IMG/VR virus record: IMGVR_UViG_3300017646_000199
Span: 1-37,622 of that record
DNA from: a virus
Taxonomy: Duplodnaviria > Caudoviricetes
Length of the DNA: 37,622 nt
Strand: one strand, 5' to 3'
Shown here piece after piece: positions 5,742-37,191 of this stretch. How positions within the stretch are numbered: position 1 is the first letter of the stretch; each line of letters begins with the position of its first letter. A model generated the notes under the pieces. It saw nothing but the letters and a program-made list of their open reading frames with translations. It made no database searches and was not told the origin of the DNA. The position numbers and the translations under genes were made by a program.

Positions 5742-6235
5742 CCGGGCAGCCTACGGCCGCGACCTCGGTCTCGCTCGGTGCCGTGCAGGTGCTGCGGGAC
5801 ACGATCGGTCTGCAGAATGTCGACCCGAAGGACGAGCTGCAGATGCAGCTGGCTCAGACCGTGCAGGAGCTCGGCCAGGGTGCGACGTTTGGCCAGAGGG
5901 TGGTGGCGCTCCGGTTCGTGTTCGCATGGCACCTGCGCGACGCCGGTGAGGTGTTCGCGACGTCGAAGGCGGACTACGAGGCGCATATGGCCCGTCTCAA
6001 GACGCGGTTCCTGGCGGAGCCGAAGATGTCGGTCGCGAAGGCCGAGGTGATGGCGGAGGCGGACGACGAGTCGTACCGGCTGAAGCTGGCGTACCTCGTG
6101 GCGGAGCAGCGGGAGCGTGCGATGCGGAAGTTCCTCGATGCGCTGGAGTCGGCGCTCGACAACCACAGGACGGACCGTGCCGACCTGCGTGCGGGTGACC
6201 GTGCGCACGCTCAGGGGATCGGTGGAGGTGCGTGA
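5738..6235 (+). CDS. Helical hypothetical protein (possibly UvsY-like recombination mediator)
   Basis: Coupled ORF; coiled segment MSVAKAEVMAEAD...ALESALDNHRT; family call is tentative. Confidence 0.65.
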   Translation: MTGQPTAATSVSLGAVQVLRDTIGLQNVDPKDELQMQLAQTVQELGQGATFGQRVVALRFVFAWHLRDAGEVFATSKADYEAHMARLKTRFLAEPKMSVAKAEVMAEADDESYRLKLAYLVAEQRERAMRKFLDALESALDNHRTDRADLRAGDRAHAQGIGGGA

Positions 6236-6336
6236 TGAGTGGGTTCTTTGGGCATCCGGTGGTGCGCGCGGGCCTCCTGGTCTTGGGCTTCGCGGTGTGG
6301 TGCGCGCTGGTGATCTGGATCGGGGCGGAGCGATGA
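6235..6336 (+). CDS. 33-aa single-TM peptide
   Basis: SD GGAGG, TGATG overlap; MSGFFGHPVVRAGLLVLGFAVWCALVIWIGAER. Confidence 0.65.
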   Translation: MSGFFGHPVVRAGLLVLGFAVWCALVIWIGAER

Positions 6337-6338
6337 GG

Positions 6339-6563
6339 TCAGCGCATGATGCCGCGGATAGTGAGGCGCACGGCTTCCTCGAAGTCATCGTGGCGGGCGT
6401 CCGACCCCGGCTTGAAGTAGCCCCGGTCGTCTCGCTTGATGGTGCCGAGGGGCATCCCGTCGTTGCGGACATGCCAGGTGTTCTCGTCGGTCTGCTTGAG
6501 GCTGATCTGCGAGTACGGGCCGTCGTCGAACGGGATGTACTTCGGGTAGTCGGGTCGAGTCAC
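6339..6563 (-). CDS. Leaderless antisense cargo gene, hypothetical 74 aa
   Basis: Protein-like composition; -10 TAGAGT 6 nt before GTG. Confidence 0.75.
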   Translation of the reverse strand: MTRPDYPKYIPFDDGPYSQISLKQTDENTWHVRNDGMPLGTIKRDDRGYFKPGSDARHDDFEEAVRLTIRGIMR

Positions 6564-6589
6564 AGCCGCACTCTATCGGCGGTGACACC

Positions 6590-7891
6590 GTGAGCGCACT
6601 GACGATCGGGTCGCTCTGCTCCGGGTATGGCGGTCTCGACCTTGCCGTGGAGTCGTTCTTCGGTGCCGAGACGGCGTGGTTCGCGGAGTACGAGGACGCG
6701 CCGTCGAAGGTGCTCGAGAACCACTGGCCCGGTGTTCCGAACCTGGGCGACATGACCAAGATCGACTGGTCTTCGGTGGAGCCGGTCGCCATCGTCACTG
6801 GTGGCACGCCCTGCCAGGACCTATCCGCCGCGGGCCGTCGCCGCGGCATGACCGAGGGCACCCGCTCGAATCTGTGGGTGCAGATGCGCGAATGCATCGC
6901 CGCGGTCCAACCCTCAATCGTCATCTGGGAGAACGTCCGTGGAGCATACTCAGCGCACGCCACTAGCGAAGTGGAACACGAACCGGGATTGCTGGGAGAG
7001 CCTTACGGACCCGGCCGACCTGCTCTCCGGGCTCTTCACCGTGTACTCGGCGACCTTTCCGATCTCGGGTTCGATGCGGAATGGGTCGGTGTACGCGCGT
7101 CCGACGCAGGTGCCCCGCATGGACGGTTCCGGGTCTTCGTCGTTGCCTACGCCGACGGCTCGCGACGCGGCAGCCTCGGGAGGTTCGACGCCTTCGGACG
7201 TGACGTTGACGGACGCGGTCGTGCGGACGGAGCTCGGGTCGCGGGAGAATCCGCGGCACGCGCTGCTGAAGACGCCAACGTCGCAGCTCGCGGTGAACGG
7301 CGGATCGCAGCATCCGGAGAAGCGGAAAGCGGGCGGGCATGGTCCGACGCTGGCAGACGAGGTGGAGCACCTGCTGCCGACGCCGACGCTGCAGGACGGA
7401 TCGAACACGGCAGGACCGTCACAGCTCGTGCGGAACACCGTTCCGCTGAACACGCTAGTCACGCTCCTGCCGACCCCGAGCGCGTCGGTGACGAACGATG
7501 GCGAGGACACGACCTCGTGGCTGGCGCGCCGAGAGCGAGTGAAAGCCACGGGGGTGAATGGGAACGGCATGGGGATGCCTCTGACGATCGCGGCGCAGCT
7601 GCTGTCGAGTGGGGTCCCTACGAGTCCGCGATCCGACGCTGGGAGCGAGTTCTTGGACGAGTAGCGCCGGCGCCGACGAACCCTGATGGTAAGGGCGGTG
7701 CTCACCGTCTCGCGCCGGAGTTCGTCGAGTGGATGATGGGTCTCCCGGCTGGTCACGTCACCGGCGTTGGGATCTCACGCTCGGAGGAACTGAAGGCGCT
7801 CGGAAACGGTGTGGTCCCGCAGCAGGCAGAGCTCGCCCTGTCGATCGTGTGGCCTCGTCTCGTTGACGTGCGAGAGGCGGTCGCAGCGTGA
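6590..7891 (+). CDS. DNA (cytosine-5) methyltransferase
   Basis: Motif I SLCSGYGG, IV GTPCQDLS, VI WENV, VIII HGRFRVF, IX RLAPEFVEWMMGLP, X LGNGVVP. Confidence 0.93.
   Translation: MSALTIGSLCSGYGGLDLAVESFFGAETAWFAEYEDAPSKVLENHWPGVPNLGDMTKIDWSSVEPVAIVTGGTPCQDLSAAGRRRGMTEGTRSNLWVQMRECIAAVQPSIVIWENVRGAYSAHATSEVEHEPGLLGEPYGPGRPALRALHRVLGDLSDLGFDAEWVGVRASDAGAPHGRFRVFVVAYADGSRRGSLGRFDAFGRDVDGRGRADGARVAGESAARAAEDANVAARGERRIAASGEAESGRAWSDAGRRGGAPAADADAAGRIEHGRTVTARAEHRSAEHASHAPADPERVGDERWRGHDLVAGAPRASESHGGEWERHGDASDDRGAAAVEWGPYESAIRRWERVLGRVAPAPTNPDGKGGAHRLAPEFVEWMMGLPAGHVTGVGISRSEELKALGNGVVPQQAELALSIVWPRLVDVREAVAA
6939..7664 (+). CDS. Overprinted +1-frame protein with four LPTP modules (candidate MTase partner/specificity subunit)
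   Basis: SD GGGAG 7 nt before GTG; LPTP/LKTP at 7143, 7266, 7374, 7467; protein-like sequence where the main frame is low-complexity. Confidence 0.7.
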   Translation: MEHTQRTPLAKWNTNRDCWESLTDPADLLSGLFTVYSATFPISGSMRNGSVYARPTQVPRMDGSGSSSLPTPTARDAAASGGSTPSDVTLTDAVVRTELGSRENPRHALLKTPTSQLAVNGGSQHPEKRKAGGHGPTLADEVEHLLPTPTLQDGSNTAGPSQLVRNTVPLNTLVTLLPTPSASVTNDGEDTTSWLARRERVKATGVNGNGMGMPLTIAAQLLSSGVPTSPRSDAGSEFLDE

Positions 7892-8034
7892 GCGCACTGA
7901 GGTCGTTCTCGGCGCACTACCTGATCGGGGTGGATGCGTTCGGTGAGGGGTGCGCGTGCGGCGAGCGACGCCTGCACATCGTGGAGCACTTCGCCGACCT
8001 CGCGCTCGCTGAGCTTGAGGCGGAGGCAGCCTGA
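7888..8034 (+). CDS. 48-aa protein with H-CxC-H pattern
   Basis: GTGA overlap; MSALRSFSAHYLIGVDAFGEGCACGERRLHIVEHFADLALAELEAEAA. Confidence 0.6.
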   Translation: MSALRSFSAHYLIGVDAFGEGCACGERRLHIVEHFADLALAELEAEAA

Positions 8035-8035
8035 C

Positions 8036-8407
8036 GTGAACACGACACCGAAGGCTGTGCTTGCCGAGCTCGACCGCCGCGACGGGCACGTGTGCGCGTG
8101 GACGGGTGAGGACACCGGCCGGCTGGTGCCTCAGCACCGGCAACGGGGCATGGGCGGCAGGGCCGGCCTGCACCGGCTGTCGAACCTGGTGTGGCTCGAT
8201 TCGGTGATCAATGGGCTGATCGAGTCCGATCCGGCCTGGCAGGCCGAGGCGTTGCGGCGGGGGATCAAGATCAGCGGGTTCGCGGACCCGGAGGAGGAGC
8301 CGGTCGAGCATGCGGTGCTGGGTCGGGTGCGGTTGAAGGATGACGGCGCGTGGGTGCCTGACCGGGTGGTCCCGGTCGACGAAACATGGAAGGTGGTGAG
8401 TGGCTGA
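8036..8407 (+). CDS. HNH-like endonuclease (degenerate)
   Basis: RRDGHVCAW...QHRQRGMGG...SNLVWL; SD GGAGG. Confidence 0.7.
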   Translation: MNTTPKAVLAELDRRDGHVCAWTGEDTGRLVPQHRQRGMGGRAGLHRLSNLVWLDSVINGLIESDPAWQAEALRRGIKISGFADPEEEPVEHAVLGRVRLKDDGAWVPDRVVPVDETWKVVSG

Positions 8408-34192: not shown

Positions 34193-36043
34193 GTGGCGTT
34201 TCCCGAGTACATTCCCGTCCGCCCGGTCTCGATCGGTGGGGCGAGGGTCCTTGAGTCATCCGATCTGCTGAAGGTCCGTGTCACCATCAACGCGTCGAAG
34301 TCGCTGGTCTGGGATGCGACTGGGTACCGGTTCGAGAAGCTGAAGGTCGTCTCGACCTCCGAGCTCGGCTCCGAGATCGTGATCAGCTTGCCCCGGACCG
34401 ACGTGCAGGGCTGGCGTGATCCGGCCGTGAACGCGGTGATCGACGTCACCGAGCCGGGGTCGTTCACGCACCGGTACACCGCGACGGTCGAGTTCCTCGA
34501 CGCCGCCGACCGGCCTATCGGGGTTCGCCCGGTCACGCTCGGTCCGTTCACGGTGCCCGATGGTGAGGGCGTGATTGACCTGGACAAGACCGTGCCTGTG
34601 TCGTCCGTGTCGGGCGAGCTGGTGATGATCCCGGATCTGTGGGGGCAGCTGGTCGTGCAGGCGGAGGCGGCGGCGGTCGAGGCGAAGGGTGCGGTGCTCG
34701 ATTCGGCCACGTTTGTCGCGGAGCAGATCGGTGACCCGGAGTCGCCTGCCGGCGTGGTGCTATCGAACACGTACGGGTCACGTCTGCGCAGTCTCGCGAA
34801 CCAGATCGGGACGAAGCTCCGGGCGTGGCCCGGTCGCCTGACCGCCGACGTGCCGACCGTCACAGTCGGCACCGCGGCGACCGTGACGGGCAGGCAGATG
34901 CCGTTCCAGTCGGCCGCACGTGAGGTCGTCTCGCGCGGCGCGTGGGACCCCACCTTCAACCGTTGGAAGGTGCAGGGGACCGGCCCGTTCACGGGGTTCG
35001 ACGCGATCCTCGAAGGGGACACGCTCGAGCTTGAGGTGGTCATGGTCGGGACCTCGTTCACGTACATGGTGCTGGTCGATGATGAGCCGGTCGATGGTGT
35101 CTTCACTGCCACCGCTACGAGCAGCGGGTTCCAGTACTTCAAGCTGGCGTTCGGCTCGGTGAAGCATCGACGGGTGACGGTCTACTTCGGCGGCGTCGGC
35201 GCCTTCCGATTCCTCACCGTTCCGATGACGCAGAGCATCGAGCCAGCTCCCGCGAAGCCAGTGCTCTGCGTCGTGGGCGACTCGTTCCTCGCAGGCTCGG
35301 CGGGCTCGTCATCAACGGACGGGTTCATGTTCTACGTGTGCCTCCAGCTCGGCATCGAGTACACCGGCACCGTGTTCGGCGGCACGGGGTACGCATCGGC
35401 GGGGAGCTTCACGAAGTTCGGCGACCCGGCGCGCGTCGCCGCCGCAGCGAAGACGAAGCCCGACGTGCTCGTGTTCGTCGGCAGCGTGAATGACGACGAC
35501 AAGGCCAACGTTCAGGCGGAGGCAGCAGCGACGTTCGCCGCCTACGCCGCCGCGCTGCCGGGTGTTCCGATGATCGTGTTCGGTCCGCAGCCGTCCGCAG
35601 CGGCCACCACGATCGGCGCCGCACGAGCGCAGCGCATCGCCGCGGTGAAGGCCGCGGCGGATGCATCGCCGAGCGTGGTCGCGTTCTTCGACATGGTGGG
35701 AACAGGGGCCGGCGTTCCGGCCGCATGGTCGGCGGGCAACTGGGCAGGCGGCAGCGTCGTCACCCACCTCGGTTCGGTGTGGCTAGCCGACTGGGACGCG
35801 GACGACACCAGGCCCGACACGCCCGGCTCGGGTGGGTGGAAGCGGGTCACGTACGGATTCGACGGGACGGGTCGAGTCGGAGGCGCGACCGGCAACGGCA
35901 ACCGGGACGTGAACCTGTACTCCGACCAAGTGCACCCGACCGCGGCGGGGCAGCGAGCCTTCTGGGCCGCATCGCTGCGCGTGCTGACGACGTTCTTTGC
36001 ACGCCTCGTGGCGGAGGACACCCGGCAGCGCACCCTCTACTGA
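34193..36043 (+). CDS. SGNH/GDSL esterase, probably virion-associated
   Basis: Blocks GDSF, GGTGY, GSVND, DQVHP; N-terminal structural-like domain. Confidence 0.85.
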   Translation: MAFPEYIPVRPVSIGGARVLESSDLLKVRVTINASKSLVWDATGYRFEKLKVVSTSELGSEIVISLPRTDVQGWRDPAVNAVIDVTEPGSFTHRYTATVEFLDAADRPIGVRPVTLGPFTVPDGEGVIDLDKTVPVSSVSGELVMIPDLWGQLVVQAEAAAVEAKGAVLDSATFVAEQIGDPESPAGVVLSNTYGSRLRSLANQIGTKLRAWPGRLTADVPTVTVGTAATVTGRQMPFQSAAREVVSRGAWDPTFNRWKVQGTGPFTGFDAILEGDTLELEVVMVGTSFTYMVLVDDEPVDGVFTATATSSGFQYFKLAFGSVKHRRVTVYFGGVGAFRFLTVPMTQSIEPAPAKPVLCVVGDSFLAGSAGSSSTDGFMFYVCLQLGIEYTGTVFGGTGYASAGSFTKFGDPARVAAAAKTKPDVLVFVGSVNDDDKANVQAEAAATFAAYAAALPGVPMIVFGPQPSAAATTIGAARAQRIAAVKAAADASPSVVAFFDMVGTGAGVPAAWSAGNWAGGSVVTHLGSVWLADWDADDTRPDTPGSGGWKRVTYGFDGTGRVGGATGNGNRDVNLYSDQVHPTAAGQRAFWAASLRVLTTFFARLVAEDTRQRTLY

Positions 36044-36202: not shown

Positions 36203-36209
36203 GAGTGTC

Positions 36210-36276
36210 GGTAGCAGTTCCTCCGCGGACCACGCGCCACCTCCGAAAGGCAGCCATGGGCTGCCTTTCGTGTTTC
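36210..36276 (+). ncRNA. Candidate small structured RNA plus terminator, DUF3800-associated
   Basis: Stem GGTAGC/GCCACC enclosing a possible pseudoknot, then a perfect 12-bp hairpin CGAAAGGCAGCC-ATG-GGCTGCCTTTCG and TGTTTC. Confidence 0.5.
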
Positions 36277-36291
36277 CGCTACGGTGTATGC

Positions 36292-37191
36292 GTGCTTGTT
36301 GCGTATCTCGACGAATTCGGCCATGTCGGGCCGTACATGTCGACCACGCACCGGAAGTTCTGTCATCATCCTGTCTTCGGCTACGCCGGTATTGTGATTC
36401 CCGCTGAGAACGTTCGGGCGTTCGGTGCCAAGTTCGAGCGGGTGAAAGAGCGCCAGTTCCGGTCCGAGATCGTCGCATCCGGCGATCATCCGCGACGCTG
36501 GGAGAAAAAGGGCTCCGAGATCTTCACGACGGGAGCGTTCGAGCGTTATCCCCAACGTGTCGACTTCATCGCGGACCTCGCTGATTACCTCACGAAGCTC
36601 GGTGGCAGGTTGTTCTTCTACGGCGAGGTGAAGCCCATCGGCACCGAGAAGATGACCGGGGAATCTGCGTCGGCTCGAACAACGCAGGTCCTCACGGAAG
36701 TTGTTCGCCGCCTGTGTCGGTATGCCGATGGACTCGACAAACATCTCACTGTGCTTCTCGATCAGGGCGGTCCGATGCCCCGTGAGGAGGCCATCACCTC
36801 GATGGCCTCGTTCATCTACTCATCTGATCACCCGTCCATGAAACGCATCATCGAAGTGCCTATGCAGTTGGAGAGCCACCGATACGGTGCCATGCAGTTC
36901 GCTGACTGGATCTGCGCTATTGCAACGCGTGCGTCTCACTTCCATTTGTCGGACTCGGATGAGTTTTCGTGGGCGCCTCCTGCATTCCGGCAGATCGTGG
37001 GCAGGCGGGCGACGCCAGATTCGCGGATTTGGCTGTCCTCGCGGCACATTGGGATCTCGGCGGGCGCACTCGCACACGGGCGTAAGTGGCTGGGTTCAAG
37101 TTTCCAGCGACGCGAGTCGGATCACGGCACACACCTGACGCACACCGTTGCTGATGCCCTGCTGCAAGCGCCGGATCGAGCCAGCGCCTGA
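36292..37191 (+). CDS. DUF3800 family protein (RNase H-like), candidate defence/toxin
   Basis: N-terminal AYLDEFGH, WEKKG, C-terminal MQFADWI; GTG at 36292 with -10 TACGGT 6 nt upstream; lower GC than the phage core. Confidence 0.82.
   Translation: MLVAYLDEFGHVGPYMSTTHRKFCHHPVFGYAGIVIPAENVRAFGAKFERVKERQFRSEIVASGDHPRRWEKKGSEIFTTGAFERYPQRVDFIADLADYLTKLGGRLFFYGEVKPIGTEKMTGESASARTTQVLTEVVRRLCRYADGLDKHLTVLLDQGGPMPREEAITSMASFIYSSDHPSMKRIIEVPMQLESHRYGAMQFADWICAIATRASHFHLSDSDEFSWAPPAFRQIVGRRATPDSRIWLSSRHIGISAGALAHGRKWLGSSFQRRESDHGTHLTHTVADALLQAPDRASA

Follow-up and report, generated by a model that had tools for sequence, protein, structure and literature searches.

A 1.3-kb gene in the window (the whole stretch of 37,622 nucleotides that was analysed) contains two overlapping frames that are both under selection, and the modules encoded in its nested +1 frame move as whole units from phage to phage and from one frame to the other. 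This dual coding and the shuffled module array are real and likely part of a two-chain orphan C5 cytosine methyltransferase (MTase), a variation on known nested and two-chain MTases. That the enzyme consists of two chains, here called alpha and beta, is predicted with high confidence; with moderate confidence, the four exchangeable modules of the nested chain are predicted to give target recognition one at a time. The following features were assigned, with the evidence for each in brackets.

6590..7891, plus strand: alpha ORF, C5 cytosine methyltransferase, 433 aa (PF00145, E 5.4e-27; phrog_363, E 1.7e-66)
6809..6817, plus strand: motif IV PCQ of alpha, with the catalytic cysteine of C5 MTases (aligns with PCQ of M.HhaI)
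6927..6931, plus strand: SD-like GGGAG within the codons for W-E in motif VI, 7 nt 5' of the beta start (sequence; start-zone analysis of 63 loci)
6939..7664, plus strand: beta ORF, +1 frame, 241 aa, GTG start (2188 homologs; phrog_1008, E 1.2e-21; selection tests)
6939..7142, plus strand: predicted N-terminal docking segment of beta, over alpha motifs VI-VIII (fixed synonymous sites; predicted interface; a like segment in MM1 beta)
7143..7265, plus strand: module 1, cluster M12 (shared with L001, L052 and, in the alpha frame, L025)
7266..7373, plus strand: module 2, cluster M0 with 23 members (head, beta residues 107-118, docks on alpha in the model)
7374..7466, plus strand: module 3, cluster M7 (recurs in L002, in the alpha frame)
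7467..7601, plus strand: module 4, cluster M3 (also in the alpha frame of five layout-C loci)
7160..7603, plus strand: read-through linker of alpha, residues 191-338 (pN/pS 2.2; stop in 1 of 76 loci; composition)
7610..7664, plus strand: start of the WGPY helix of alpha, over the beta tail (mismatches return to alpha codon position 3)
7709..7825, plus strand: motifs IX and X of alpha (motif positions; weak alignment to M.HhaI 274-307)

Two frames of one gene under selection

All C5 motifs from I to X, including PC and ENV, are found in alpha and in order, with motifs I-VIII followed by the read-through linker, the WGPY helix and motifs IX-X, the last two aligning weakly to M.HhaI. The main ORF, the 241-aa ORF in the +1 frame and the GGGAG word in the WENV codons were confirmed as the earlier note had described them. 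A frame error is unlikely, as another study (run X2) yielded a contig that is identical over 6915-8100, with 0 differences and 0 gaps. Homologs of beta numbered 2188 among 6709 candidates, with matches in 237 phage records; a beta profile matched 832 cluster representatives (50% identity) at an E-value of 1e-30 and 15,874 at 0.001, the weak end of the latter count possibly being inflated by low-complexity matches. Searches of Pfam, NCBIfam, PDB sequences and the ESM Atlas named no family for beta.

That both frames stay open for 726 nt, as the earlier note had pointed out, is informative for one frame only: with alpha codons resampled, the +1 frame stays open with P 0.36 given the alpha peptide, and its openness was set aside as weak evidence for beta when taken alone, whereas an open main frame given beta has P 0.012. 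The second protein claimed for the +1 frame is nonetheless selected, as judged from pN/pS, codon periodicity, start signals and fixed synonymous sites. In 755 nucleotide-paired alignments of 40 non-redundant loci with the layout of the window, which are related by descent and thus not independent, the mismatch frequency over the modules was 0.336 at beta codon position 3 versus 0.136 and 0.109 at the other two positions; in alpha-only regions the reverse was observed, mismatches falling on alpha position 3 (0.40), and selection shifts back to the alpha frame at the WGPY helix. Within module clusters, pN/pS was 0.29 in the module frame versus 2.21 in the alpha frame, a comparison of pairs that are not independent, biased by the choice of clusters by peptide likeness and controlled by the nucleotide-paired mismatch test; the per-frame check across homologs that had been proposed thus came out in favour of the +1 frame. 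All 15 module clusters tested (15/15) were under purifying selection in their own frame, with pN/pS of 0.07-0.52.

Beta covers more than the linker between motifs VIII and IX: the first 68 beta codons, with the start in motif VI, overlap motifs VI-VIII of alpha. In this N-terminal overlap both frames are constrained: alpha L159 is encoded by CTC in 62/62 and G160 by GGG in 61/61 loci, which fixes Ser-Gly in beta, and GC3 falls from 0.83 to 0.61. After motif VI, Ser is encoded by AGT in 38/61 cases versus 5/326 upstream, and Arg by AGA or AGG in 31/59 versus 26/398, choices that provide the +1 frame with a GAGG or GGAG word as well as a GTG. An in-frame beta start ahead of a conserved Trp is present in 61 of 63 loci, and a 4-nt SD word, as called by a simple rule, in just 37 of the 63. 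The start in the window lies four codons further upstream than is usual for its relatives, as it does in L011.

Between motifs VIII and IX the main frame is of low complexity, as had been noted, with 64% R/A/G/D over alpha residues 191-338. A stop interrupts it in one of 76 loci that have IX-X in the alpha frame and an open beta, where about 22 open loci were expected by chance; in 11 loci where alpha ends after motif VIII, the same frame contains 38 stops in 1726 codons. The linker is thus nearly free of stops, yet under no amino-acid constraint, from which it follows that alpha must reach motifs IX-X while the linker residues are free. The main frame over the modules is a free linker that is held open, in agreement with the earlier proposal, and the term "overprinted", which had been applied to the modules, fits this linker better.

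Modules and layouts among relatives

Pattern-based splitting, which makes some errors, yielded 268 modules from 84 loci, falling into 99 clusters, of which 28 have at least two members. Modules number 1 to 9 per locus, with up to 12 heads in long proteins, and have a median length of 38 aa. Four modules with L(P/K)TP heads are present in the window as claimed (starts at 7143, 7266, 7374 and 7467); the tail motif, described as (T/P)L-xxx-hydrophobic, is a loose one, with L at -7/-8 and at -1 in 161 internal modules. Each of the four (M12, M0, M7, M3) is found elsewhere at a different place in the array, and layout-C loci carry each of them in the alpha frame. In the nearest relative, L001, flanks that are 83-84% identical on both sides enclose a different array, the match stopping at the first module head and picking up again at the WGPY helix. 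The idea of a shufflable array is thereby borne out. Catalytic motifs, modules and motif X occur in one chain in 76 of 120 longer homologs among the matches listed, and such single-chain fusions tie the modules to the enzyme.

The argument from nucleotide junctions in the earlier note does not hold: the likeness of the 18-nt junctions does not exceed what the codon usage of LPTP gives (P 0.42). Junction repeats were accordingly rejected as a selected recombination signal; the junctions may still serve as microhomology. A deleted form, L098, joins the array straight to motif X and has no motif IX. In a 329-nt contig of a relative (run X5, depth 3.6, possibly an assembly artefact), position 7083 is joined to 7795, skipping 711 nt with the module region and motif IX.

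For the comparison of layouts, 137 loci were fetched with the first 191 residues of alpha, a query that covers the overlapped motifs and hence is not wholly blind to beta. Of 138 sequences, 131 were anchored, 16 stayed unclassified and 3 were truncated; 20 loci were reassigned by hand, 15 from their translations and 5 from matching twins. Layout A (n = 50, counting the window and L040, which are the same phage) has a nested beta with modules and IX-X in alpha. In layout B (n = 12) alpha ends after motif VIII, and modules, IX and X are in beta, so that 12 loci fuse the modules to motifs IX-X. Layout C (n = 26) has modules in both frames, layout D (n = 12) has IX in beta and X in alpha, and layout E (n = 12, from near-identical phages) has one chain with one module and a closed +1 frame.

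Layouts A, B and C are separated by single frame changes alone. They interleave on a tree built from the catalytic part by a quick method, where layout B requires 10 changes for 11 rows, no fewer than in shuffles; L055 (A) and L056 (B), both single-module forms, are sisters with 99% support. Recent breaks or errors of assembly could account for some of these switches, but 7-12 stops have accumulated in the abandoned frame of several B loci. In a subgroup (L031, L041, L042, L052, L094, L099, L102), motifs VI and VII are separated by an insert of about 50 codons, which is basic and helix-like in alpha, and beta starts later.

In GenBank, the second ORF is started near the first module in Renna12 (L140, gp41/42) and Medusa (L145, gp78/77), overlooking an upstream GTG behind GAGAGG, and the nested beta of PFR1 (L146, orf45) is not annotated. 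In Renna12, gp46 (L140:5174-5555), which lies four genes further downstream, is also annotated as a DNA methyltransferase. Medusa, an A4-like phage, has layout B with three modules. A C-terminal QL-x-LL-like tail, which resembles a sliding-clamp binding motif, is found in 11 of 119 beta homologs, including P0005, L005, L011 and L019, and is absent from beta of the window. For Kampy (cluster A4), early and strong transcription of the methylase gene 78 is stated in the accessible text of PMC4626039.

Predicted assembly and target recognition

For L064, a single-chain relative with one module, a C5 MTase fold was predicted (pLDDT 85.7) with the module between VIII and IX; the model superimposes on M.HhaI with Z 23.1 and an rmsd of 3.2 over 249 aligned residues, a result that pertains to L064. 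Its homologs were 87-100% identical among the matches listed, and 16 locus translations were added to the folding alignment. Beta alone was modelled with pLDDT 65.5 and pTM 0.31, the ordered parts being the N-terminal hairpin and module 4, while modules 1-3 mostly scored 50-70. For the alpha-beta complex a score of 0.85 was obtained, with 0.00 for the best of three controls; the mark set for this score is reached by 116 of 157 solved complexes and by 2 of 215 mismatched pairs, and the runs had a contact agreement of at least 46% and a partner pLDDT of at least 47. The two-chain prediction that had been suggested as a check, here run as a DNA-free model, thus yielded a complex, which could have passed through its likeness to solved single-chain C5 MTases.

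In the model, beta 42-49 forms an antiparallel strand pair with alpha 161-167. The confident interface contains alpha residues of motifs VIII, IX and X and, of the modules, just the head of module 2. The centre of the predicted strand pair is encoded by nucleotides 7073-7078 in both chains, as D162/A163 of alpha and M46 of beta. Since the best-scored contact joins residues from the same nucleotides, the alignments of the two chains co-vary at this place; that the strands pair antiparallel and out of register speaks against a mere artefact. The model supports docking of beta on alpha. Fold searches gave no residue-level mapping of a module head to T250 of M.HhaI.

In the proposed mechanism, beta would initiate independently at the internal GGGAG/GTG, and its N-terminal strand would pack on an edge strand of alpha, in place of the post-VIII segment of single-chain enzymes. 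A module head would dock beside motifs VIII, IX and X, at the site of the TL motif in classical target recognition domains (TRDs), and the G/N/R/K/S-rich loop behind each head would read bases, such that the array addresses several target sequences. The phage would use the enzyme in the early phase of lytic growth to protect its own DNA against restriction by the host, a role suggested by the Bacillus precedent (PMC12707154, in its accessible text). Recombination between the conserved flanks and module heads would renew the array, probably helped by the ERF and YqaJ proteins of the phage itself.

By position the modules would qualify as TRDs; by sequence no resemblance was detectable with an HMM. 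A module HMM scored below shuffles against five classical variable regions (Bacillus phages, MM1), among them those of the Bacillus phage enzymes that the earlier note had invoked as precedent. The literal TL consensus PT(ILV)(TASV), as given in the accessible text of PMC2413257, occurs in 39 of 264 modules. In the variable regions of SPbeta, H2, SPR and MM1, the best window for a module-head profile is the TL motif, with its Thr in register, albeit weakly (P 0.03-0.33 when the P/L column is left out and 0.12-0.61 over every column; SPbeta and H2 share that TRD). The module head is likely an analogue of the TL motif, judging from these profiles. We predict that the modules probably are DNA recognition elements, and lean slightly towards several active specificities in this copy.

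Two-chain C5 MTases are known in M.EcoHK31I and M.AquI, and the former, an E. coli enzyme with target YGGCCR, likewise has its beta wholly inside alpha in another frame; both chains are needed, and the N-terminus of beta is needed for association (PMC2836561, PMC3404938, in their accessible parts). As in that enzyme, the second ORF of the window lies inside alpha with its own start. In the description given by these parts, M.EcoHK31I has motifs I-VIII, X and the TRD in alpha, motif IX in beta and a single specificity; compared by description, the window has IX and X in alpha and four modules in beta, whereas the 12 layout-D relatives match M.EcoHK31I in the split of IX and X. The analogy drawn by the earlier note therefore holds for a second chain nested in another frame and is inverted in detail. 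M.AquI, a natural two-chain enzyme with a layout like B, is split within the variable region, with no module array described in the accessible text of PMC3404938.

The annotated C5 MTase alpha/beta pair orf13/orf14 of Streptococcus phage MM1 (GenBank DQ113772) has its beta nested in the +1 frame and, compared by eye, a W-x-x-W-G-M-M-W-N-G segment over motif VII like that of beta here, but a classical post-VIII segment without LPTP modules. MM1 alpha (L142:601-1758) has three TL-like motifs in tandem, and the enzyme may be both two-chain and multispecific. M.SPR, M.phi3TI/SPbeta MtbP, M.rho11s and M.H2I are orphan enzymes of phages in which VIII and IX enclose a tandem array of exchangeable units, and they are used against restriction, according to the accessible text of PMC12707154 and PMC8936443; tandem exchangeable units likewise occupy the variable region here. 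The Bacillus phage enzymes differ in having one chain in one frame and TRDs that end in PT(L/I/V)T, with no HMM match to the LPTP modules.

Mycobacteriophage Corndog gp7/gp6, which have counterparts in similar split methylases of other actinophages, are overlapping methylase ORFs with the strongest RBS in the upstream ORF and coding potential in both frames; the second ORF holds the C-terminal helices, as in layout B, and no modules are mentioned in the accessible text (PMC4351075). The mechanism of this overlap was left open there by Cresawn et al. (2015), and the two Corndog methylase products were not detected by mass spectrometry, which counts against the two-chain reading. Tweety gp69 and gp72 are listed as relatives of Corndog gp7, and Tweety gp69 matches alpha at 56%. 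The LPTP array is not described in the accessible text of PMC2884959, PMC11855218, PMC8112702, PMC8936443, PMC3711429, PMC8227390 or PMC5644110, and a search that covered subscription and older literature thinly found no paper that treats such an array or gives the specificity of any family member; papers of this kind or REBASE entries may exist.

The foremost rival, which we consider rather unlikely, is a two-chain enzyme with one or a degenerate specificity, in which one active module is accompanied by a silent reservoir, or the modules bind the backbone with little base reading. Silent TRDs occur in Bacillus phage C5 MTases, and docking of just module 2 in the model, the shortness and poor order of the modules and their lack of an HMM match to known TRDs fit this explanation; the purifying selection on every tested module cluster, at several array positions, speaks against it. 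Modules of a genuine beta partner that bind proteins (replisome, clamp, host defence proteins) instead of DNA are improbable: short shuffled motifs in a poorly folded chain, the clamp-motif-like tail of some homologs and the location of the gene in a recombination/replication module would suit such binding, but single-chain relatives vary between VIII and IX by one module alone, where the TRD must lie, and the predicted head docking adjoins motifs VIII-X.

We attach very little probability to a single polypeptide made by programmed frameshifting, from alpha into the +1 frame after VIII and back before the WGPY helix, with beta never separate. A frameshift, a hop or two products were left open for Corndog 6/7 (PMC4351075, accessible text), and the single frame changes between layouts A, B and C would be in keeping with it; against it stand the selection on the beta codons over motifs VI-VIII themselves, the SD word and start codon made from rare codons, and the open alpha linker, which a double frameshift would not need. 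A +1 ORF that is a by-product of high G+C and not made can hardly be upheld and is already largely refuted by the codon periodicity and pN/pS values, by the fixed synonymous sites and start signals, and by the in-frame fusions, notwithstanding the unsurprising openness of the frame and the lack of a Pfam or NCBIfam family for beta.

For the preferred reading of a two-chain enzyme with recognition modules, we are evenly divided over its broadest form. Phages would share a library of dozens of specificity plug-ins of 25-45 residues with LPTP heads for one C5 core, strung together in whatever order and number (1 to 12 were observed) and in either frame, each with its own target, providing a combinatorial anti-restriction hidden from annotation, and one DNA stretch would encode both strands of the alpha-beta interface. 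If the reading is right, a very large phage family (the 15,874 clusters at E 0.001) is mis-annotated, with the recognition chain overlooked where it is nested (PFR1) and given too late a start where it is joined to IX-X (Renna12, Medusa), and the question left open for Corndog would be settled. It would also provide very small specificity modules of natural origin that can be swapped, for use in decoding and engineering 5mC targets, and a clear example of the evolution of a protein interface by two frames of one sequence.

Setting of the locus

The source record is a provirus, 83% complete, with a prophage gene set comprising RuvC, YqaJ, ERF, a replication initiator, DnaB, terminase, portal, capsid and tape-measure, and the MTase gene sits within its recombination/replication module. 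The HNH gene downstream, for which 98 loci of layouts A-D were screened, has a homolog within 2.5 kb in three of them; this neighbouring nuclease is thus not conserved as the partner of a type II restriction-modification pair, and the enzyme is read as an orphan MTase. As the closest named relatives of the MTase are from Microbacterium, Leucobacter and Arthrobacter, an actinobacterium is the likely host. In 6100-8100, neither a sigma-70 promoter nor a terminator was found. Directly upstream of the MTase, a minus-strand ORF of 74 aa (6339-6563) has no match in Pfam or PHROG. The right end of the prophage encodes a DUF3800 protein (36205-37191) and a GDSL lipase-like protein (34193-36043).
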